Shown one piece after another: positions 13,425 through 35,119 of a stretch of 64,000 nt of DNA (the first letter of the stretch is position 1; the number at the start of each line of letters is the position of its first letter). Location: positions 1 through 64,000 of the IMG/VR virus record IMGVR_UViG_3300030616_000250. The stretch is one strand, 5' to 3'. The DNA comes from a virus. Under the pieces are notes generated by a model. It made no database searches and was not told where the DNA came from. It saw only the letters and a program-made list of their open reading frames with translations. The position numbers were made by a program, and so were the translations under genes.

Positions 13425-13826
13425 ATGGATTTAAAATCAGTGTCAGAAGAGGTGATTTCAACATTTGCAGAAAAATTAAAGGATTGTAGTGATTATGAAA
13501 TATTAGAATTAATGGGAAGAAACCCAAAACGTGATAATTATATGTTACATGGGGGTAATTGGATTCCAACAAACGTATCATTACCACCAATGTTTGAGAC
13601 TGTATTTGTGCGAGGGGATACAAAAGAATATCCATTTCATTTATATTGTGCAAGGCGTTGGACTGGGTGGTCATCCGGTTGGCCTGGCATAAGCGAAGGC
13701 AAGGAGCCACCTTGGGATTGGATAGCGTCTCCTTCTGATTTTCCTATAACAAATGTTACACACTGGTTTCCTATGCCAAGAGGAGAGAGAAAATATGAAA
13801 ATAAAGTTAGTACATCCTTTGGGTAG
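13425..13826 (+). CDS. DUF551-like phage protein
   Basis: WIPTNVSLPP ... NVTHWFPMP. Confidence 0.6.
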   Translation: MDLKSVSEEVISTFAEKLKDCSDYEILELMGRNPKRDNYMLHGGNWIPTNVSLPPMFETVFVRGDTKEYPFHLYCARRWTGWSSGWPGISEGKEPPWDWIASPSDFPITNVTHWFPMPRGERKYENKVSTSFG

Positions 13827-14400
13827 TTAGTTGCAAAATTTGAAATATTGGATTATAACAGGAGAAATTTTTGATGTGTAACGGAGGTTATTTCGGTATT
13901 GGAATCGAACATGGAAAAAATGAGTTAAATTATGGCACATTGTATAGAACGGCGGGTATCTTGGGAGCTAAATTTTTATTTATAATTGGGAAACGTTTTC
14001 AGCAACAATCATCTGACACAATAAAATCTTGGCGACACGTCCCAATGTTTTCGTATCCAACCTTTAATGATTTTTATAAAAATTTACCTCACGATTGTAT
14101 GTTAATTGGCGTTGAGATGATGCCAGAAGCAAGCTACCTTGAAAGGTTCACACATCCAGAGCGAGCATGTTATTTGTTAGGAGCCGAAGATCATGGGTTA
14201 ACTAAACTTGCTATATCCAAATGTCATAAGTTTGTAAGGTTGCAGGGCGAGCACTCTTTGAACGTAAGTGTTGCAGGTTCAATTGTAATCTATGACAGGT
14301 TATCAAAAATTTCTCCTGCAAGATAATATGGAAATTTCAAATTCAACACACAACAGCCAAATGGTTAAACTAAAAAGCGAGCTTCACCATTAGGCATACG
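13827..14400 (+). mobile_element. Integron-type gene cassette carrying a TrmH methyltransferase
   Basis: Begins at G|TT (13826); single ORF; ends in attC-like element 14348-14406; AATTTGAAAT after the 5' GTT is the inverted copy of ATTTCAAATT before the AAC, at the same offset. Confidence 0.65.
13874..14326 (+). CDS. TrmH/SpoU-family (SPOUT) RNA methyltransferase
   Basis: NYGTLYRTA, LLGAEDHGL, SLNVSVAGSI. Confidence 0.9.
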   Translation: MCNGGYFGIGIEHGKNELNYGTLYRTAGILGAKFLFIIGKRFQQQSSDTIKSWRHVPMFSYPTFNDFYKNLPHDCMLIGVEMMPEASYLERFTHPERACYLLGAEDHGLTKLAISKCHKFVRLQGEHSLNVSVAGSIVIYDRLSKISPAR

Positions 14401-14406
14401 TTGTTA
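14348..14406 (+). other. attC-like recombination site (59 bp)
   Basis: ACACAAC-AGCCAAATGGT...ACCATTAGGC-ATAC-GTTGTTA imperfect palindrome. Confidence 0.65.
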
Positions 14407-14422
14407 ATATAGGAGAAAACAA

Positions 14423-15136
14423 ATGGAATTAAAACCAATACCAAACCCTGAGTGGCAAAAGAAGTACAACCTGTTAATGCTCGACCCGTATCTCAATCGC
14501 AAGTACAACCGTGAGAAACGTATCAAAGACCACAGAAAATACATGGGTAATTGCACTCCTGAGCTAAAGAACTGCACGGGAAAGAACGTACTTGAAATCG
14601 GCCCCGCTATGGGAGAGTGGTTGGAGATATGCAGGGAGTTCGGTCATAATGTCTTTGGCATTGACGCAGTAGTCACGGACAACGAAATGGGAGATGAATA
14701 CGCTCAGATGTCCAAGCTTATGACAGAACGGCAGGAGATTGATGTATTATACACCGGCTTTGACCGATACCTTTTAATGGACTTGGAGTACCGACAGGGT
14801 ATAATACCAAACGGTTCTATCTTTTATATTAATCTTCGCGGTTGTATAGAGCAGGTGTTCAAGGATTACATGACAGGCCCCCCACACAAACAGACAAAAG
14901 ACTGTTCACAGTTAGCATGGAAAGACACACCGGAAACGTGGGAGATGTTTGAGAGAATGTTCACCGAGTTTGACAGAATGCTTGAGGACGGCGGGTATAT
15001 CTATATCTGGGCAAACGGGTCAAAGAACAATCCAACCTATGACAATTACATACTTGAGACGTTGAAGAAGTTCCCGCAGCTTCAGTTATTCAAAAAGGTT
15101 GGCAAGGTACAACATAAGATAAGGAAGATGGCGTGA
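14423..15136 (+). CDS. Class I SAM-dependent methyltransferase
   Basis: VLEIGPAMG, GID, RMLEDGGYI. Confidence 0.75.
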   Translation: MELKPIPNPEWQKKYNLLMLDPYLNRKYNREKRIKDHRKYMGNCTPELKNCTGKNVLEIGPAMGEWLEICREFGHNVFGIDAVVTDNEMGDEYAQMSKLMTERQEIDVLYTGFDRYLLMDLEYRQGIIPNGSIFYINLRGCIEQVFKDYMTGPPHKQTKDCSQLAWKDTPETWEMFERMFTEFDRMLEDGGYIYIWANGSKNNPTYDNYILETLKKFPQLQLFKKVGKVQHKIRKMA

Positions 15137-22406: not shown

Positions 22407-23098
22407 GATTCGTAACATGTGGTAGAATAGCATTTACCCGGCAAGTGGTTGAGTCGATATTCAAGTATAATCCTGTGGTTAGGAGATACCCTTGGATAAT
22501 AGCCGATGATAACTCAGAACCGTGTATGAGAAACTATTTTGATTCTCTTGACTTGGGTATGACCTATTTGTGGCACGAAAAACGTAAGGGGATTAATGCC
22601 AATTTAAAGCAGATGTTTGATGAGGCGCGGGGCAAATTTGACCTTCTTCTTATATTTGTGAATGACTTTGTATGTCTCAGGGAAGTGGATATTGGTGCAA
22701 TGATAGAGTTTTTTGCAGATACTCCCGAAGCCGGGCAGGTGCAGATGTTTCATTGGAAAGGTAAAATAGGAGACAAGAAGCGCGAGCGCAGCATGACAAA
22801 TTGGATAACCGGAGACCCTATAAAGGTCTCACAGATACTTCAGGTGGGAAACGAAACATTATTAGAGGCAAATTGGGTATGGACAGACGGTGTTAATTTT
22901 ACAAGAATACTACCGGAAGTGGATTACTTTGAAGGTTCCCTGGGACTTCCGAAAGAGGAAAAATACATTAAAATAGCCGAAATAACCAAAGGCAAAAATT
23001 TTATGGATACCGGCATGAAAATATATGAAATGGCAGATCAGCCGTTTCTTCATCTCGATCATGATGGTAAAAATAAAACAAAGGGGACTATTGCATGA
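22385..23098 (+). CDS. GT-A fold (GT2-like) glycosyltransferase
   Basis: VTCGR, IIADDNS, G.NAN, FVNDF, FLHL. Confidence 0.65.
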   Translation: MVLRLGIGFVTCGRIAFTRQVVESIFKYNPVVRRYPWIIADDNSEPCMRNYFDSLDLGMTYLWHEKRKGINANLKQMFDEARGKFDLLLIFVNDFVCLREVDIGAMIEFFADTPEAGQVQMFHWKGKIGDKKRERSMTNWITGDPIKVSQILQVGNETLLEANWVWTDGVNFTRILPEVDYFEGSLGLPKEEKYIKIAEITKGKNFMDTGMKIYEMADQPFLHLDHDGKNKTKGTIA

Positions 23099-23102
23099 AA
23101 AA

Positions 23103-23159
23103 TTTTAACGTACGCCAAAAGGCTGAACGTCTAAAGATTTTAGCCTTTGGCAGTTGGGC
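23103..23159 (-). other. attC-like site of cassette 1 (57 bp)
   Basis: Minus strand GCCCAAC-TGCCAAAGGCT...AGCC(T)TTTGGC-GTAC-GTTAAAA with one unpaired base. Confidence 0.75.
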
Positions 23160-23869
23160 GAAGGTTTTTCTTTTAATTAAGAAAGGTGCGACATGCTCTT
23201 TAAGTGATTTACCTCTTTTATTTAAGCATAACGAGAAACAAGATAATCAAAGCTCCAATAGTAAAATAAAAAGAAATGCGCTCACGGAATATGCTCGAAA
23301 CATAATAGTCATCAATATCTTCATAATATTGGGTGTTTTGTTTCTTGTGTTCGGGATCATTAGCCATATCTTTGGTAGTAGAATCTTCGAAATATTTAGC
23401 TCGTTTTGAGTCAAGATTTCTATGTGAATAAATGTTCTTTGAAATAAGGGGAGAAGGGAAATAAAAGGTTTTATAATAGTTTAAGTGCTATTAAAAGCAT
23501 GATAAGGGCAATTATAAATTTACTATCTATCCATAGTAACATAATAAAACCCCCCATGCAACACCTTGATTTCCAGCTATTCCGTTTACCCTTTGTTTAA
23601 TTAAACGCTCGGTTGCCGTAATTGGTGATTAAACCAATTAATCGGCTGGTGGGTTTTGGTATATAGTCACCCCTGCGTTTACCAAATCAAACAAAGGCGC
23701 GCCCCCTTCTCATAAGCCAAGAAATAATCTTGGTCATAACTAACCTCCTTTTGGGAAGTTGAGGAGGGGGATTCCTCCCCGTTATTTCAAAGAGCTATGT
23801 ATTAATCTTTAACAAAGGCTTTTCTCTTATGTCGCACAAGAAAAGAATCAGAGAACGAATTGAAACCAA
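23109..23869 (-). mobile_element. Reverse-oriented integron-type cassette 1 inserted in 52-bp site A
   Basis: Bounded by attC-like 23103-23159 and site A; deleting it restores a perfect TTTTAAC/GTTAAAA pair. Confidence 0.72.
23218..23542 (-). pseudogene. Frameshifted two-TM membrane protein gene (cargo of cassette 1)
   Basis: MLLWIDSKFIIALIMLLIAL.. stops at 23471; adjacent frame continues NYYKTFYFPSP...RISFYFTIGALIILFLVMLK; removing one A at CTTAAAC joins them. Confidence 0.5.
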
Positions 23870-23915
23870 CGAAACAAACGGTGGAAGTTTTAATTTCCAC
23901 CTTTGGGAGTTAAAA
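23864..23915. repeat. 52-bp attC-like target site A (occupied)
   Basis: AACCAAC GAAAC AAACGGTG GAAGTTTTAATTTC CACCTTT GGGA GTTAAAA. Confidence 0.8.
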
Positions 23916-24865
23916 TGAAAATACTTGTAACAGGCTGTGCAGGCTTTATCGGAACCAATCTATGTAAAAGACTCGTTGAACACGGGCACGAGGTAATAGG
24001 AATAGACAATTTCAGCTATGGTTATACTTCAAACATGAAAGACATAGGCTTTGGCAATTATTATGCCTCAGACGTGCGGTACTTTAACGGAGACAACTTT
24101 GGTGACATTGACGTTATTTATCATCAGGCAAACCTTAGAAAGAATATATCCTCAAACAAGCCCGACGAAGACATAGACATCACAATCCGGGGAACGTGCA
24201 ATCTATTACAATATGCCATCAAAAACAATGTGAAAAAGTTTATATATGCCTCATCTTCCCTTGCATACGGCAAATCCGATCCCGTTGTTACAGAAGAGAG
24301 CCCGCTATGTCCTATTTGTATCTATGGAATATCAAAAGTAGCTGCTGAAAAGCTCGTTAAATACTATCACGGAACCAACGGACTCGAAACGACAATCCTT
24401 CGGTATTTTCAGGGTTACGGGCAGTATCAGGACAGCCAAAGGGGAGCCGCAATAATACCGAAGACTATTCGGAATATGTTTGAAAACAACCCTATTATCA
24501 TAAATGGTGATGGCTCACAGACCCGTTCATTCACTTGGATAGAAGATATTATAGACGTGCTTATGATGCCATTGTTCGATAGCAAAATGTCCGGTGAGAC
24601 TTATAACGTAACAGCGGGGAAAGAGTATTCTATAATTGAAATAATTGATTTAATAATGAACTGCTATTGTGAATTATACCCTGAGAAGAAAGTAAACAGG
24701 ACTGACAGACTATGTTACAGAGCCGCCCTCCCGGATGACATAAAGCACCTTGCGGGAAACAATGACAAGATAAGAGACCTTGGTGTTAAATTCAATATGG
24801 ATATTCACGAAAACATAAAGGAAACGATAAGATTTTATGAACGTTACCATACTCAGTCATTATAG
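23915..24865 (+). CDS. NAD-dependent nucleotide-sugar epimerase/dehydratase (extended SDR)
   Basis: VTGCAGFIG, YASSS, YGISK (YxxxK), GDGSQTRSF. Confidence 0.93.
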   Translation: MKILVTGCAGFIGTNLCKRLVEHGHEVIGIDNFSYGYTSNMKDIGFGNYYASDVRYFNGDNFGDIDVIYHQANLRKNISSNKPDEDIDITIRGTCNLLQYAIKNNVKKFIYASSSLAYGKSDPVVTEESPLCPICIYGISKVAAEKLVKYYHGTNGLETTILRYFQGYGQYQDSQRGAAIIPKTIRNMFENNPIIINGDGSQTRSFTWIEDIIDVLMMPLFDSKMSGETYNVTAGKEYSIIEIIDLIMNCYCELYPEKKVNRTDRLCYRAALPDDIKHLAGNNDKIRDLGVKFNMDIHENIKETIRFYERYHTQSL

Positions 24866-28046: not shown

Positions 28047-28486
28047 TAAGTGGAGATGCGTGGATTGATAACGATGTTAAATTGATAGGAGAACAGGATA
28101 TTTGGCATTATGCACTTATCCGGGGTAATGCTGAAATAGGAAACAATTGCAGCATAGGCAGCTATACTGAAATAGCACATGATGTTATTATAGAGGATAA
28201 TGTTCGCGTTCATTCAAAGGGTTTTATACCTGAGTATACGATTATAAAAAGAGGTGCCTGGATAGGCCCCTGTTGTACTATTGTAAATGATTTACACCCG
28301 CAAACCAACGGAAAATACAGAAAAGGAATAACCATAGGAGAGGGTGCTATTATCGGTGCAAATACTACTCTTATGGCTGACATAGGAAAAAACGCTATTG
28401 TCGGTGCTGGTTCAGTAGTTACTAAACCCGTGCCAGAAGGAGTAATTGTTTATGGAAATCCCGCTATGCGACATAAGGGCAAGTGA
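28043..28486 (+). CDS. Second hexapeptide-repeat acetyltransferase
   Basis: IGNNCSIG, WIGP...ND.HP, IGANTT, GAGSVVTK...YGNPA. Confidence 0.9.
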   Translation: MISGDAWIDNDVKLIGEQDIWHYALIRGNAEIGNNCSIGSYTEIAHDVIIEDNVRVHSKGFIPEYTIIKRGAWIGPCCTIVNDLHPQTNGKYRKGITIGEGAIIGANTTLMADIGKNAIVGAGSVVTKPVPEGVIVYGNPAMRHKGK

Positions 28487-29561
28487 CGCTCATTACAGAG
28501 ACGAAATAGACGAAGCCGTTAAAAGAATAATTGACGACTCAAGCTTCATACTCGGTAAACCGGTAGAGGAGTTTGAAAAAAACTTTGCAAAGTATATTGG
28601 GACGAAACACGCAATAGGTGTTAGCTCGTGTACTATGGCATTATATCTTTCTCTCAAAGCTCTGGGTATTAAAGAGGGTGACGAGGTTATAGTTCCTAAT
28701 TTTACCATTGCCGCCGATATAGAGCCGGTGCTGATGTGCGGTGCCACCCCGGTTCTCTGTGGGGTCAAAGAGGACGGTTGTATAGATGAATATGAAATGA
28801 GGAATCGGATAACAAAGAGAACAGGTGCTATTATAGTTGTTCATTTATACGGTAACGCCTGTCCTGTTCCTGACATGGAGAAAATGACAGAAATCCCTAT
28901 TATTGAAGATTGCGCCCAGTCTACAGGGACTACATTTGAAGGACAGATGACGGGTTCATTTACAGACTTAGGTTGCTTTAGTTTCTTTCCTTCAAAAAAT
29001 CTCGGTGCCTATGGAGATGGCGGAATGGTTACAACCGATGATGATGAACTTGCAGGCACAATAAGAATGCTTCGTAATCACGGGCGGGCACCCGGAGAGC
29101 GATATCATCACAGCATGATAGGGGTAAACTCCAGACTTAACGCTATGCAGGCAGCCATACTTAACGTAAAGCTGAAACATCTTAATAATGCCATAAAGAA
29201 AAAAAGGAAGATAGCAAAACTATACAACAAGTATTTGAATGACATACCACAGGTTATAACACCTACTGAAATTCCAGTGGTTAATCACAGCTATTATATG
29301 TACTCTGTCAGAGCCACAGAGCGGCGTGACGAGCTGCTTAAATTCCTTGTAGATAACGGTATTAAGGCAAGTGTACACTATCCATTGCGACTGTCAGATC
29401 ATCCCATATATGCAAAATATTACAGCCCATTAGAAGATGAACCGACTATTGGGTATATACTCAGCAAAACAGTTTTAAGTTTGCCAATGTTCCCCGCACT
29501 TGAAGAAGAAGCGGTTAAATATATTTGTCAGAAAGTGAGAGAGTTTTATGAAAAAAATTAA
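28452..29561 (+). CDS. DegT/DnrJ/EryC1/StrS PLP aminotransferase (WbpE/WlbC-like)
   Basis: FILG..VEEFE, VHLYG, EDCAQS, SFFPSKNLGAYGDGG, NSRL, LSLPMFP. Confidence 0.95.
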   Translation: MEIPLCDIRASDAHYRDEIDEAVKRIIDDSSFILGKPVEEFEKNFAKYIGTKHAIGVSSCTMALYLSLKALGIKEGDEVIVPNFTIAADIEPVLMCGATPVLCGVKEDGCIDEYEMRNRITKRTGAIIVVHLYGNACPVPDMEKMTEIPIIEDCAQSTGTTFEGQMTGSFTDLGCFSFFPSKNLGAYGDGGMVTTDDDELAGTIRMLRNHGRAPGERYHHSMIGVNSRLNAMQAAILNVKLKHLNNAIKKKRKIAKLYNKYLNDIPQVITPTEIPVVNHSYYMYSVRATERRDELLKFLVDNGIKASVHYPLRLSDHPIYAKYYSPLEDEPTIGYILSKTVLSLPMFPALEEEAVKYICQKVREFYEKN

Positions 29562-29641
29562 CGTACGGCCAAGGTTTGTTGCAATTGCCTATAATCTCAC
29601 ACAAAAGTTACTGCAATTGTTTCAAACTTGGTCAGTTGTGT
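29556..29641 (-). other. attC-like site of cassette 2 (86 bp)
   Basis: Plus strand AATTAAC-GTACGGCCAAG(G)TTTG..GCAATTGC...GCAATTGT..CAAACTTGGTCA-GTTGTGT. Confidence 0.75.
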
Positions 29642-29947
29642 CTTGCCAAAATTTGCGTCATACATTCAAAAATAAGTCCAAATACACAATAAAACATCCA
29701 CCCTCTCCAACAACCTTAAAATTGCTTATTAAAGAATTAGGGCACTGGAAAAGAGCTAATGATAAAAAATATAAATATAAAACTGGTGTATTTAATCCCC
29801 ATGTAAAAATATGCTGTAGATGTAAAAACTGTAATGAAACTATAAATTATGAAATACATACTGTAATGCCGGAACCTGGTTATTTTAAAATAATACCCAA
29901 AGAAGAATATGCTTATATTAAAGAAAAATATAGAAAAAGTGAAATAA

Positions 29948-30187
29948 CTATTTTTTGTAAAAACGAATGTCTTTAACAGGATCACCGTCAGCGTTGCTAA
30001 CGCCATCAATGGCCTCAACATAAAAAGGGTTGCCATCATGAGAAAGGCGCTGTTTAAGTTCATTAAAATAAGGGTGTTTTAAACTATGTCTATCATAAAA
30101 ATCATTAGCATCCCATTTAAACGACTTTACATCATTAAAAAGATTAAGGATTTTTTCTTTGATAATTTCATACTTTTCATCAGTCAT
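29948..30187 (-). CDS. Hypothetical protein (cassette 2 cargo)
   Basis: RBS AAGGAG on minus strand; 79 aa. Confidence 0.65.
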   Translation of the reverse strand: MTDEKYEIIKEKILNLFNDVKSFKWDANDFYDRHSLKHPYFNELKQRLSHDGNPFYVEAIDGVSNADGDPVKDIRFYKK

Positions 30188-30219
30188 ACATACTCCTTTA
30201 TATGGGGTAAGAGATAATG

Positions 30220-30726
30220 TTAATAATTTTTTGTATGATGTTCAATAAGCTTTTTTTTAAAATCATTATAACACAAAGGTTCACCAAGTTCATTTTCCAT
30301 AAATACTTCAAGCCCACATTCAGGACACTTAACAAAGGCAGCGTTATGGTCAGGCCCCCATTTGGTTTTTCTGCTTGGCTGAAAAGGAACAAGATGCTTT
30401 GGACAATAAATTTGCCAACTTTCATCATACCAATATTGGTTATATTTAAACAATTTAGGTTTTTCTTTGATTTTATTAATTTCGATTTTAAGTCGTTTAG
30501 TATAGGAGTAAAACATATATGTTAGGATTAATCCCAGAGATAGCATTGTGGCTATGGTGTACAGGGACCACGGGTGGCACAATTTGCTCCCTAATATGGT
30601 CGGACGAATTTTGTCTATGGCGAAAGCTATTGTATTCAATCCTAGAGGGGATAGAAGATTCAACCATCCTTTCACTTTTTCTTTGGCTGTTTCTTCTACC
30701 GACGATATTATTAAATCCTTCAGCAT
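30220..30726 (-). CDS. Membrane-anchored Zn-ribbon hypothetical protein (cassette 2 cargo)
   Basis: Hydrophobic segment SLYTIATMLSLGLILTYMFY; CPKH...CPEC. Confidence 0.65.
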   Translation of the reverse strand: MLKDLIISSVEETAKEKVKGWLNLLSPLGLNTIAFAIDKIRPTILGSKLCHPWSLYTIATMLSLGLILTYMFYSYTKRLKIEINKIKEKPKLFKYNQYWYDESWQIYCPKHLVPFQPSRKTKWGPDHNAAFVKCPECGLEVFMENELGEPLCYNDFKKKLIEHHTKNY

Positions 30727-30804
30727 GGGGTATGCCCTTTCATAAAAATCTTTTTAGTGTATGGATAGATAAAATTGATATTTCTCTTAGCAAATTTTGG
30801 TTTG

Positions 30805-30856
30805 ATACAACGAAACAAACGGTGGAAGTTTTAATTTCCATCTTTGGAGGTTAATT
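30805..30856. repeat. 52-bp attC-like target site B (occupied)
   Basis: ATACAAC GAAAC AAACGGTG GAAGTTTTAATTTC CATCTTT GGAG GTTAATT. Confidence 0.8.
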
Positions 30857-30857
30857 T

Positions 30858-31814
30858 ATGCCCGATAAAGTTCTCCTGGTAGCCGATGTCCCAAACTGGG
30901 CATGGATGTACAAGGCTAAAGCTATACAGAAATACCTGAATGACCACTTCAAGAAAATAAGCGTTATCCATCTAAAGAAATTCCATAAGGGCTTAATGGG
31001 AAAATACCATACTGTGTTATTTTTCGGATGGATGGACAGGCGCAAAATAGCAGGGAAATACAAGGGGCTTATAGCGGGGGTATCTTCACATAACTTTGAG
31101 TATCTGCACCCTGAGAAAGCGAGAAAGTATCTTCCGAAATACAGTGCCATTACAGCTAATTCAATACTCATTTATGAAAAGCTAAAGGAATGGAATCTCA
31201 ACAAAAACATCTACTACACACCAAACGGAGTAGACGAGACAATATTCTATCCTAATCCGATTAAGCATGATAAGTTCCGTATAGGATGGATGGGACAGCC
31301 TTCAGGAAAGGGATTTAACCGGACAGACGGTATTGATATGCACGGCTACCACAATGTTTTGCTTCCCCTTGTAGAATCTCTTAAAGATGAAAAAGACATA
31401 GAATTTGACATACTTGCAAGGACACACAAGAATGCGAGAGCTTTTGATAAAATGCCTGAATACTATAATAATCTTGATTTATTTATTAGTACAGGCTTCG
31501 GAATTGGGACACCTAATCCGTTATTTGAAGCGCAAGCTTGCGGAGTAGCCGCAATAAGTACAGCCATAGGCGCAGCCCCAGAATTGATAGAAAATTCATT
31601 GAGCGGATTTTTAGTACCAAGATATTATAACAAGAAAGAAGCACAAGATAGAGCGGAAGAAATAAGAGAATGGATATTGTTTTTTAAGAAAGATAGAATA
31701 TATGCCAATGATTTTGGTAAACGTGCAAGGCATAATATAGAAAAACACTGGACATGGCGTGAATGCTCTAAAGCATACCTGCCTGTACTGACTAACCATA
31801 GGAAGAAAATATGA
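30858..31814 (+). CDS. GT-B glycosyltransferase (GT4)
   Basis: PNGVDETIF, IGWMG, LDLFIST, NPLFEAQACG, GAAPELI. Confidence 0.9.
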   Translation: MPDKVLLVADVPNWAWMYKAKAIQKYLNDHFKKISVIHLKKFHKGLMGKYHTVLFFGWMDRRKIAGKYKGLIAGVSSHNFEYLHPEKARKYLPKYSAITANSILIYEKLKEWNLNKNIYYTPNGVDETIFYPNPIKHDKFRIGWMGQPSGKGFNRTDGIDMHGYHNVLLPLVESLKDEKDIEFDILARTHKNARAFDKMPEYYNNLDLFISTGFGIGTPNPLFEAQACGVAAISTAIGAAPELIENSLSGFLVPRYYNKKEAQDRAEEIREWILFFKKDRIYANDFGKRARHNIEKHWTWRECSKAYLPVLTNHRKKI

Positions 31815-33578: not shown

Positions 33579-34795
33579 ATGAAAAATTTGAACGATTCGT
33601 AAACACGTTGATAGTTAATTTTGACAATTTTTACAAGTCAAAAACAGGTGCCTGGTTCCTTGATGGATCGACTTTGATTGAATTTGTCTGCAATAGACGG
33701 CTTAAAGAACCCATAAATATCGGTATGGTAAATTGCAGCAAGGAGACATTTAAGGAAAGAATGTACCATTGGGAGGTTAAGGAAACCGGGGAAGATACGC
33801 TTAAAGCCGTACTTTTGGGCTACACGGTTAACGTAAAGTTCTATAAGAACCTAAATACTATCATAGCCCCTAAAGACAGGATAGAGGAAAACCTGAAGAA
33901 ACGCGATACTGCCATGAACCAATACGGGGTGTGGAGGTACAATTTAGACCAATCTCATTGGTATCACTTCCCGGTTCCCTATAAAGTCGGTGGTTTTCTG
34001 GACGACACATACCCATTATGGTTTATGAACATAAAGCATGAGGATATCAGCGGTATCTCCAATGACATCTTTTTTGACGATAAAAGGTCTGAAAACGCCG
34101 TTGAGTTAATGAAATTGATACGTGAATGCGCTGAAGCTGCGGGATTCGGTAATTATGTTTTTCCTGCATTCGGGACTCTTTTGGGAATTATAAGAGAGGG
34201 AGGGTTTATAGGTTCCGATAGAGACCTGGATCACGGGATAGCAGGATGGAAGATTACCGCACAGCAGGAAGAAAACTTCATACGTGAAGTAATGAAAGAG
34301 CGTATTGTTATTGAAAAAGCTCCCGATGGCAGGGAAGTTCCTGTAAAATACCCTCAAGGACTTGCAACCGGAAGATTCAAACACCCCCAGAAACGTAGCG
34401 ATAACGGGCGTTTTTTGTGGACATCCATAGGTCATAAGAAAATAAAGAGTCAGCAGGGGACGAAATCATGCGTGTGGAAATTCTTTAAGCATAAAGACTT
34501 TGCATGGCACTCAAAGGGAAGAAAGTGGTTAGCGGACAGAAAGTTTCCGGGAGTATTAAGTAGCCATTCCGGTAACGCTCAGGCTATTGCTAAAGGTATG
34601 CCTTTGGATATTATAGACGAATTTGTAAAAATGGAGTTTCGTGGGGTAAAAATAAACGTACCCCAAAAAGCAGGGCACTGTCTCGATATGTGGTATCCGT
34701 ATGGATGGCCGAGACCGAGAAAAGACAAAAGCTCTAAAGAATATACGATGATAATAACAAGATGGGAGGACGAGAAAAAATGGAAGATGGTGTAA
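33575..34795 (+). CDS. LicD-family nucleotidyltransferase-fold protein with apparent degenerate N-terminal duplicate
   Basis: FGTLLGIIREGGFIGSDRDLD; F.GVKINVP....LDMWY; N-terminal WFLDGSTLIEFV...FPVP..VGGFLDDTYP. Confidence 0.8.
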   Translation: MNEKFERFVNTLIVNFDNFYKSKTGAWFLDGSTLIEFVCNRRLKEPINIGMVNCSKETFKERMYHWEVKETGEDTLKAVLLGYTVNVKFYKNLNTIIAPKDRIEENLKKRDTAMNQYGVWRYNLDQSHWYHFPVPYKVGGFLDDTYPLWFMNIKHEDISGISNDIFFDDKRSENAVELMKLIRECAEAAGFGNYVFPAFGTLLGIIREGGFIGSDRDLDHGIAGWKITAQQEENFIREVMKERIVIEKAPDGREVPVKYPQGLATGRFKHPQKRSDNGRFLWTSIGHKKIKSQQGTKSCVWKFFKHKDFAWHSKGRKWLADRKFPGVLSSHSGNAQAIAKGMPLDIIDEFVKMEFRGVKINVPQKAGHCLDMWYPYGWPRPRKDKSSKEYTMIITRWEDEKKWKMV

Positions 34796-34796
34796 A

Positions 34797-34848
34797 ATTT
34801 AACTATAGAAACGGCTGTAGTTTTAATTACAGCCTTTGGAGGTTAAAA
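34797..34848. repeat. 52-bp attC-like target site C (empty)
   Basis: ATTTAAC TATAG AAACGGCT GTAGTTTTAATTAC AGCCTTT GGAG GTTAAAA; stem covaries with A and B. Confidence 0.78.
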
Positions 34849-35078
34849 TGGAAAAGGACTCAATAATGCAGGTAATAGAATCCCTTGCAAAAAAGAAAAA
34901 ACGTATCCTTACCCGTGAAGAATTTAAAATGCTTAAACGAGGTAGAAAAGAATTCCTTGAACGGGTAGACCAGACCGAGGGAAAAGCAATAAGGTTCACA
35001 AAATGGTATGACGACTGGAAGGAAAAGATATCAATGCCACTGGCTGCGAGCCATTCCTTAAGCGAAGTTTTTAAATAA
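34848..35078 (+). CDS. Hypothetical protein
   Basis: RBS GGAGG supplied by site C. Confidence 0.55.
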   Translation: MEKDSIMQVIESLAKKKKRILTREEFKMLKRGRKEFLERVDQTEGKAIRFTKWYDDWKEKISMPLAASHSLSEVFK

Positions 35079-35090
35079 AATAAATAATTA

Positions 35091-35119
35091 TTGACATTAT
35101 TCTGCATATTTTGTATTAT
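35091..35119 (+). promoter_or_regulatory. Sigma70-type promoter upstream of the virion operon
   Basis: TTGACA 35091-35096, 17-bp spacer, TATTAT 35114-35119; AT-rich upstream. Confidence 0.75.

Follow-up and report, generated by a model that had tools for sequence, protein, structure and literature searches.

Inverted attC-like hairpin sites in duplicated gene junctions of a phage glycan operon as candidate donors of start codons

Bases 1–64,000 of the 74,434-bp virus record IMGVR_UViG_3300030616_000250, hereafter termed the window, carry a glycan-synthesis module at 11–35 kb, upstream of a P22-like portal gene. Three gene junctions of this module contain related hairpin sites, designated A, B, and C. 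Site C is empty, sites A and B each hold an inverted cassette, and a short open reading frame (mini-ORF) crosses each site in its empty or reconstructed state. These sites raise the question of what the start codon in their left arm does. Our analysis suggests that the left arm is an initiation region, in frame with the crossover point, that donates a ribosome-binding site (RBS) and a start codon; we give this reading an even chance of being correct. The + strand carries all genes of the phage, and Shine-Dalgarno motifs precede 62 of 97 crude genes compared with a background of 11%, which indicates that the phage uses Shine-Dalgarno sequences.

Anatomy and origin of sites A, B, and C

The original prediction held that the empty site C is read through by a short ORF, that removal of the cassettes recreates such ORFs at the other two sites, and that the right arm of each site supplies the RBS of the next gene; these descriptions were reproduced throughout. 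The 28-codon ORF across site C runs from ATG 34780 to TAA 34864–34866 and encodes MEDGVKFNYRNGCSFNYSLWRLKWKRTQ. It overlaps a LicD-like gene (stop at 34793–34795) by that gene's last 16 nucleotides (nt) and the downstream gene, which begins at ATG 34848, by its first 19 nt. In silico removal of 23110–23870 (761 bp) yielded an ORF encoding MKNFNETNGGSFNFHLWELK, with ATGA overlaps at 23095–23098 and 23915–23918, and removal of 29563–30811 (1249 bp) yielded one encoding MKKINETNGGSFNFHLWRLIYAR, starting at 29548. The three mini-ORFs use one common frame (NxxNGxSFNxxLW). Those of sites A and B stop at 23916–23918 (within ATGA) and 30867–30869 (12 nt past the ATG), whereas the stop at site C lies 19 nt past the ATG. 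With inserts of 59, 61, and 68 nt, the frame at each site ends up on the old stop of the upstream gene. The right arms carry GGGAG or GGAGG at 5, 7, and 5 nt before ATG 23915, 30858, and 34848, respectively. Ahead of the mini-ORFs themselves, the Shine-Dalgarno sequence GGGAGGA is located 9 nt before ATG 34780 and AAGGGGA 7 nt before ATG 23095, while only a weak GAGAGAG precedes ATG 29548. The features of the locus are listed in Table 1.

Table 1. Positions of the sites, cassettes, and reading frames in the window
Feature	Position	Strand	Details
Site A, left arm	23095–23109	+	ATG in ATGA overlap with GT2 stop; box TTTTAAC
104-codon ORF	23095–23409	+	From site A ATG into cassette 1; putative membrane protein
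Cassette 1, 761 bp, inverted relative to the operon	23110–23870	−	Own imperfect hairpin at 23103–23159
29-codon ORF in filled site A	23829–23918	+	Starts inside cassette 1, reads the hairpin in the mini-ORF frame, ends in the ATGA of the epimerase start
Site A, right part	23871–23917		Stem 23880–23886/23895–23901; GGGAG 23905–23909; box GTTAAAA 23909–23915; epimerase ATG 23915
Site B, left arm	29548–29562	+	ATG; box AATTAAC; DegT stop TAA 29559–29561 inside the box
Predicted gene of the 142-residue protein	29548–29976	+	Start and first five codons from site B left arm, remainder from cassette 2
Cassette 2, 1249 bp, inverted	29563–30811	−	Own hairpin at ~29556–29641
79-residue ORF of cassette 2	29948–30187	−	Start region conserved in L012
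168-residue gene of cassette 2	30220–30726	−	Membrane segment and zinc ribbon
Site B, right part	30812–30860		Stem 30821–30827/30836–30842; GGAGG 30846–30850; box GTTAATT 30850–30856; GT4 ATG 30858
Mini-ORF C, 28 codons	34780–34866	+	ATG, left copy of the ancestral start of the downstream gene; TAA, right copy of the ancestral stop of the LicD-like gene
Site C, attC-like hairpin	34797–34848		Left box ATTTAAC 34797–34803; right box GTTAAAA 34842–34848
GGAGG in right arm and ATG 34848	34838–34850	+	True start of the 76-residue downstream gene

The hairpin motif is present in three copies in the window against zero expected, and no other copy was found in the 74-kb genome. In site C, the stem segment GGCTGTA (34813–34819) pairs with TACAGCC (34828–34834) around the loop GTTTTAAT. 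We compared six hairpin versions, comprising docking sites A, B, and C, the orthologue of site B in the related contigs L011 and L012, and the hairpins of L022 and L023, two further phage contigs that carry the same hairpin family and were found with a relaxed pattern. All 66 of 66 positions were paired, 12 of them with compensatory double changes, and none of 500 shuffles was as good. Compensatory changes affected four of the seven core pairs; the stem is conserved as a structure rather than as a sequence. All six versions have a single bulged base (C on the + strand, G on the − strand) where the AAA/TTT pairs adjoin the core stem; it may correspond to the extrahelical bases by which attC sites mark the recombining strand.

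The boxes that bound the hairpins resemble those of integron attC sites. At the empty or reconstructed sites, the inverted boxes are complementary at 7/7 (TTTTAAC/GTTAAAA), 7/7 (AATTAAC/GTTAATT), and 6/7 (ATTTAAC/GTTAAAA) positions. The four docking sites all have AAC and GTT, and the outer box positions match the R/Y consensus of attC (RYYYAAC, GTTRRRY) loosely. Exchange of box halves by in silico excision changed the complementarity of the 7-nt boxes from 3, 3, 4, and 4 to 7, 5, 7, and 6 bases. Both inserts end between AA and C on the + strand, that is, between G and TT on the − strand, as in the joining of attC cassettes. Sites A–C thus appear to behave like attC sites that are inverted relative to the operon. 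The restored complementarity of the terminal boxes independently supports the pre-insertion states, in agreement with what had been proposed for them.

Each insert contains a second, imperfect hairpin, located at the left end on the + strand, which is the 3′ end of the − strand. The arms of the cassette 1 hairpin (AAAGGCTAAAAT and AGCCTTT) and the minus-strand start of this cassette (TTGGTTTCAATTCG) match a + strand cassette array at 67–70 kb of the same genome. An orthologous cassette occupies in L011 and L012 the same site as cassette 2, and the minus-strand gene for the 168-residue protein of cassette 2 is real, given the 52% identity of this protein to a 154-residue minus-strand protein of L012. 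Pfam, PHROGs, and the ESM Atlas yielded no family for the cassette proteins. An IS200/IS605-type element was ruled out, as the hairpins at the two ends of each insert are unlike, and a group II intron was ruled out by the lack of a reverse transcriptase and of intron ends.

The hairpins might instead be signals at the RNA level, such as terminators, processing sites, or attenuators, with the cassettes being ordinary variable genes. Consistent with this, the hairpins on the minus strand are followed by T-rich runs and receive terminator-like scores. However, only three U residues follow the stem on the transcribed strand, the hairpin family is found in both orientations relative to genes, and an Rfam scan assigned the hairpins to no family. 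Site-specific insertion is in keeping with the precise ends of the inserts, with the box complementarity regained on excision, and with the second hairpin in each cassette, and we regard a function as RNA signals as very improbable.

Comparison with relatives settled the origin of the mini-ORFs and showed that the sites lie in gene junctions whose stop and start formerly overlapped. In the site-free relative L005 (67% identical in LicD and 79% in the portal protein), the end of LicD overlaps the beginning of the next gene over 19 nt, inside ATGGAAGATGATATCTTAA. The window has two copies of this junction, one in each flank of site C, and both align to the single junction of L005. The left copy retains the Shine-Dalgarno sequence GGGAGGA and ATG 34780, and L005 uses GGGAGGA for a genuine gene. 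The right copy retains the true start at 34848, the downstream protein aligning with the L005 protein from residue 1, and in the LicD frame it has kept the old TAA, now at 34864. As for the DegT junction, an ATGA overlap joins DegT and GT4 in L010, and in L014 and L016 DegT ends with EFYA and a stop codon over the ATG of the next (small) gene, matching the tail of mini-ORF B (YAR and a stop codon). Direct repeats with the downstream start codon flank the sites, namely ATGAAAA at site A and TTTATG at site B, both identified by inspection, and AAAATGGAA at site C. Each mini-ORF thus begins at a duplicate of the downstream start codon and ends at a duplicate of the upstream stop, and the hairpin is now flanked on either side by the former stop/start arrangement.

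Start codons in filled sites

Long reading frames start from the site ATG and cross into the cassette at both filled sites. In shuffling analyses, the probability of being open by chance was P < 5e-5 for the 142-codon ORF of site B and P = 3.5e-4 for the 104-codon ORF of site A, the latter being twice the length of any other ORF in cassette 1. The 142-residue protein is conserved. A homologue, P0037, showed 48% identity over 140 residues, with conservative replacements and a shared CxxC-containing C-terminal domain, and P0039 is a more distant homologue. Between the start and the conserved C-terminal domain, neither the 142-residue protein nor P0037 has an in-frame ATG. The protein of the window begins with MKK-IN, which corresponds to codons of the DegT junction. 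P0037 begins with MEDG-IT, and MEDG is shared with the site C mini-ORF and the gene at the LicD junction. A plausible reading is that another phage carries the same cassette gene in a LicD-type junction and that the gene borrows the start found there. Donation of the start by the site would predict a LicD-type 3′ end, ATGGAAGATGG, an AAC box, and a cassette hairpin near P0037, upstream of the conserved domain. Searches of IMG/VR with GT2 and the 142-residue family, and of GTDB genomes with a GT4 profile, gave no match.

We infer from these data that the ATG of the site is used. The left copy of the junction retains the Shine-Dalgarno sequence and the ATG of the ancestral start, and this ATG shares the frame of the AAC box at which cassettes join. 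The right copy retains the true start, now with a new GGAG from the right arm of the site, plus the old stop of the upstream gene. In an empty site, the left ATG would open a short read-through ORF ending on the old stop just inside the next gene. In a filled site, the same ATG would start a start-less ORF that leaves the cassette through its hairpin, of 142 residues in cassette 2 and probably 104 in cassette 1. The peptide sequence would then be irrelevant, and the initiation region and the reading frame would be what matters. Initiation at 34780 is likely, since the same initiation region serves a genuine gene in L005, and translational coupling is plausible. In the mRNA fold predicted for the empty site C, GGUUAAA immediately ahead of the AUG is taken up in the outer box pairing; a ribosome translating the mini-ORF would open this pairing and could expose the downstream start, such that passage across the empty hairpin may help the next gene. 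A broader proposal is that duplicated junctions give rise to inverted attC-like sockets, which when empty relay translation by a dummy ORF and when loaded lend an RBS and a start codon to a start-less gene antisense to the cassette. A captured cassette would thereby be expressed in the late operon without its own promoter or initiation signals, and the same gene could be plugged into different junctions (beginning with MKK at the DegT junction here and with MEDG at a LicD-type junction elsewhere). We consider this broader proposal possible, although on balance slightly more likely to fail than to hold.

Several results weigh against donation of the start codon by the site. Over its N-terminal 45 residues, the 142-residue family shows an identity of only ~29%, a similarity that the DNA hairpin could explain, and the MEDG start of P0037 is the choice of a gene caller, tied to the LicD junction by four residues only. 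No homologue of the 104-residue ORF was found. The sites represent only two or three independent insertion events, sites A and B being near-identical. By the same criteria, a bridging ORF is present in 8 of 23 other gaps of 21–150 nt in the genome, and related hairpins lie in unbridged gaps, one after a TrmH cassette of the window and one in L023. Finally, no tyrosine recombinase (PF00589) was detected in the 74-kb genome at E ≤ 1, although 14 of 14 control genomes scored. The cassettes may be moved by a host-encoded integrase of the integron type, and the sites would then be similar to clusters of attC sites lacking an integrase (CALINs).

Avoidance of antisense stops, which would allow ribosomes to cross filled sites, was considered and dropped as not significant. 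Synonymous-recoding nulls for antisense openness gave P = 0.035 for the 168-residue gene, 0.15 or 0.014 for L012, and 0.3–0.8 for the 79-residue gene, and control genes showed antisense runs of 68–82 codons. The two long antisense ORFs are unlike as proteins (E = 0.37), and the long + strand ORFs antisense to the 168-residue gene are neither conserved nor significantly long. Within cassette 1, a G+C-rich hairpin at 23761–23780 is followed by a T-run on the + strand; this terminator-like element could cause polarity on the epimerase block.

The mini-ORF peptide, its frame, and a relay of translation

The original prediction treated the peptide as a bridge that keeps the operon translationally coupled. 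Selection on the peptide was not upheld, as NxxNGxSFNxxLW corresponds to invariant nucleotides of the DNA site (AAC, the loop GTTTTAAT, and CTTT). The motif decays across the hairpin family to N-x-x-S-F-N-x-x-L-[W/S], and variable columns fall on codon positions 1, 2, and 3 in a ratio of 2:3:3, with mostly non-synonymous changes. Owing to TAA triplets in the loop and in both boxes, two of the three frames are closed across the site and one is open; the frame shared by the mini-ORFs is therefore largely forced by the site sequence. The presence of three in-frame start codons has a probability of roughly P = 0.04, to be read with the near-identity of sites A and B as copies.

Related sites differed: the hairpin of L022 is bridged, whereas those of L023 and of the TrmH cassette are unbridged, and the site in L012 has no start in frame. 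A general role of the sites in supplying an RBS was also not upheld, as the orthologous site of L012 reads TTTCTAG, compared with TTTGGAG here, and a separate AAGGAGG follows ~20 nt later; an RBS within the site is thus a lineage-specific feature. Nor is translation across such hairpins needed, given the unbridged gaps that contain the L023 hairpin and the forward hairpin after the TrmH cassette.

In L022 (817–930, minus strand), a 37-codon ORF extends across a forward-oriented member of the hairpin family. This ORF shares sequence with both neighboring genes, namely the end of the upstream one and the first 20 nt of the downstream one, and the upstream TGA is inside the stem. The loop frame of L022 is open as well where it is antisense to genes. 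In L012 (640–700) and L011 (492–552), the putative start codon of the GT4 orthologue (78% identical) is a non-canonical ATC (or ATA), which follows AAGGAGG at a distance of 5 nt; no in-frame ATG, GTG, or TTG follows the preceding in-frame stop, and the two separate samples have the same sequence.

These observations bear on whether the mini-ORFs are neutral scars, that is, by-products of hairpin insertion with duplication of the start region, in which neither the peptide nor its translation has a role. The restriction to a single open frame, the openness of the same loop frame on the antisense strand in L022, the lack of codon-position bias among variable columns, and the base rate of 8 bridged gaps among 23 are all in line with such an origin, and antisense ORFs of 70–100 codons are ordinary in this genome. 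By contrast, a neutral origin does not account for the frame that the left ATG shares with the AAC box at sites A–C and presumably in P0037, for the conservation of the 142-residue protein whose ORF uses the site ATG, for a 104-codon ORF unlikely to be open by chance, or for the genuine gene of L005 that is served by the initiation region corresponding to 34780. We therefore regard a purely neutral origin as rather unlikely.

The mini-ORF could also be a selected device in which ribosomes melt the hairpin, relay translation, and prevent polarity, such that a cassette breaks the relay and tunes the downstream genes, as had been proposed for the epimerase and GT4 blocks. A selected relay is favored by the outer pairing of the empty site, which masks the spacer ahead of the AUG, by the stop/start geometry rebuilt on both sides of the hairpin at three sites, by the insert lengths that each put the frame on the old upstream stop, by the bridging ORF of 37 codons on the transcribed strand of L022, and by the documentation of the mechanism for ORF-11/17/18 and attC short ORFs in class 1 integrons (PMC8876359). 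It is disfavored by the base rate of bridging ORFs (~35%), by the unbridged hairpins of the TrmH cassette and L023, and by the L012 site, which has neither a start in frame nor an internal GGAG and whose GT4 gene has its own RBS. In the window, a good Shine-Dalgarno sequence before each downstream gene makes coupling unnecessary, and the two filled sites are carried upstream of glycan genes without any relay. A relay also leaves the long junction-crossing ORFs unexplained, and we judge selection for it unlikely. Donation of the start codon would extend to those ORFs. For annotation, the 142- and 104-residue ORFs are best called as genes whose start lies outside the cassettes, and the 28-residue ORF is not to be regarded as a conserved family of peptides.

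Known systems and further features of the genome

The closest known system is ORF-11/17/18 of attI1, together with the short ORFs proposed in attC sites. According to a review (PMC8876359), a short ORF that has a Shine-Dalgarno sequence and an ATG of its own extends across the crossover point of attI1 in class 1 integrons (Hanau-Bercot et al., 2002). The same review describes an ORF of the ORF-11 type as having its stop at or just past the junction and feeding ribosomes to the next gene, its amino-acid sequence being immaterial, and cassettes without an initiation region as depending on, or fusing to, such an ORF (PMC8876359). The mini-ORFs of the window similarly have their own Shine-Dalgarno sequence, weak at site B, and their own ATG upstream of the crossover, span it, and end at or just past the next start. 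Unlike attI1, the site here is an attC-like hairpin rather than a double-stranded attI beside an integrase gene, and it lies in a phage late operon between glycan genes. The start and stop of the mini-ORFs are duplicated start and stop codons of the neighboring genes, and the ORF that would receive the start is antisense to the cassette.

Short ORFs in attC were proposed to relieve the barrier that the stem-loop poses to ribosomes, according to the review of the line of work of Jacquier et al. (2009) (PMC8876359); later work gives more weight to the translation rate of the cassette (PMC11511950). In both systems, translation through a folded recombination site is proposed to sustain downstream expression by termination and reinitiation. 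Integron attC sites are oriented with the genes, whereas the docking sites of the window are inverted.

CALINs (PMC4889954) have been predicted in virulent phages (Qi et al., 2023; PMC9892861). The sites described here share with them folded sites bounded by AAC and GTT, covarying stems, promoter-less cassettes, the lack of a nearby integrase, and the location in a phage. They differ from CALINs in that the three sites are solitary, 4–7 kb apart, inverted, and placed within coupled junctions of a core operon, and in that two of the three hold inverted cassettes. The promoter-early stem-loop (PeSL) cassettes of T4-type phages are also units shuffled between genomes, marked by stem-loops at gene boundaries. 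PeSLs combine a promoter with the stem-loop and act by homologous recombination. In contrast to PeSLs, the sites of the window have AAC/GTT boxes, exact insertion points, and no promoter motif.

Relative to ORF-11, the features that would be new are the inverted attC-type site, the phage operon, the duplicated neighbor codons, and the start given to an ORF antisense to the cassette. If donation of the start codon is correct, a recombination hotspot can fit inside a tightly coupled operon without breaking it, as a duplicate junction on either flank of the hairpin maintains the former geometry. The phage would have a route to express captured genes that lack a start codon of their own, and the ORF-11 principle of clinical integrons would extend to attC-type sites in a virus. 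Such sites would also represent a natural design for landing pads inside operons, and further examples could be searched for by an ATG in frame with an AAC box that is followed by a long junction-crossing ORF.

Searches for further sites returned several look-alikes. The site pattern had no true copies in IMG/VR and JGI metagenomes. A site-like match in L007 (6431–6832, minus strand) was rejected, as it forms no hairpin and a terminase-small-subunit-like protein carries NGGAGFNSRLWSL by coincidence; the DNA of L007 matches the site loop and right arm and is a look-alike that any pattern search will catch. Matches in L008 and L024 were likewise rejected for want of a hairpin. Megablast of 21–37 kb against GenBank phages gave no match, and a tRNA scan detected no tRNA.

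The window also contains a forward-oriented, TrmH-like cassette (13826–14425) with an attC-like hairpin at ~14340–14410, of which the sequence is ACACAAC...AGCCAAATGG...CCATTAGGC...GTTGTTA. This hairpin is located in a 96-nt gap without a bridging ORF, and the RBS of the next gene lies outside the site. The gene upstream of the cassette ends with CCTTTGGGTAGTTAG (13810–13826), which resembles the right arm of site A.

A marine-sediment DNA run contains 7% of the sampled words of this phage, and no RNA run with this DNA is listed. Contigs of this run contained no joint that skips either cassette. Some of them are ~98% identical to the DegT gene (28451–29329). A relative with 85% identity in the same run spans the junction of GT2 with the left end of cassette 1 (22901–23203), showing that site A is filled there too, and the start codon and its frame are kept in this relative.

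Downstream of site C, the best match of the region to a sigma-70-like promoter is found at 35091–35119 (TTGACA, 17 nt, TATTAT; 11/12), just upstream of the portal block. Given this match, expression of the structural genes may be independent of read-through from the glycan operon.

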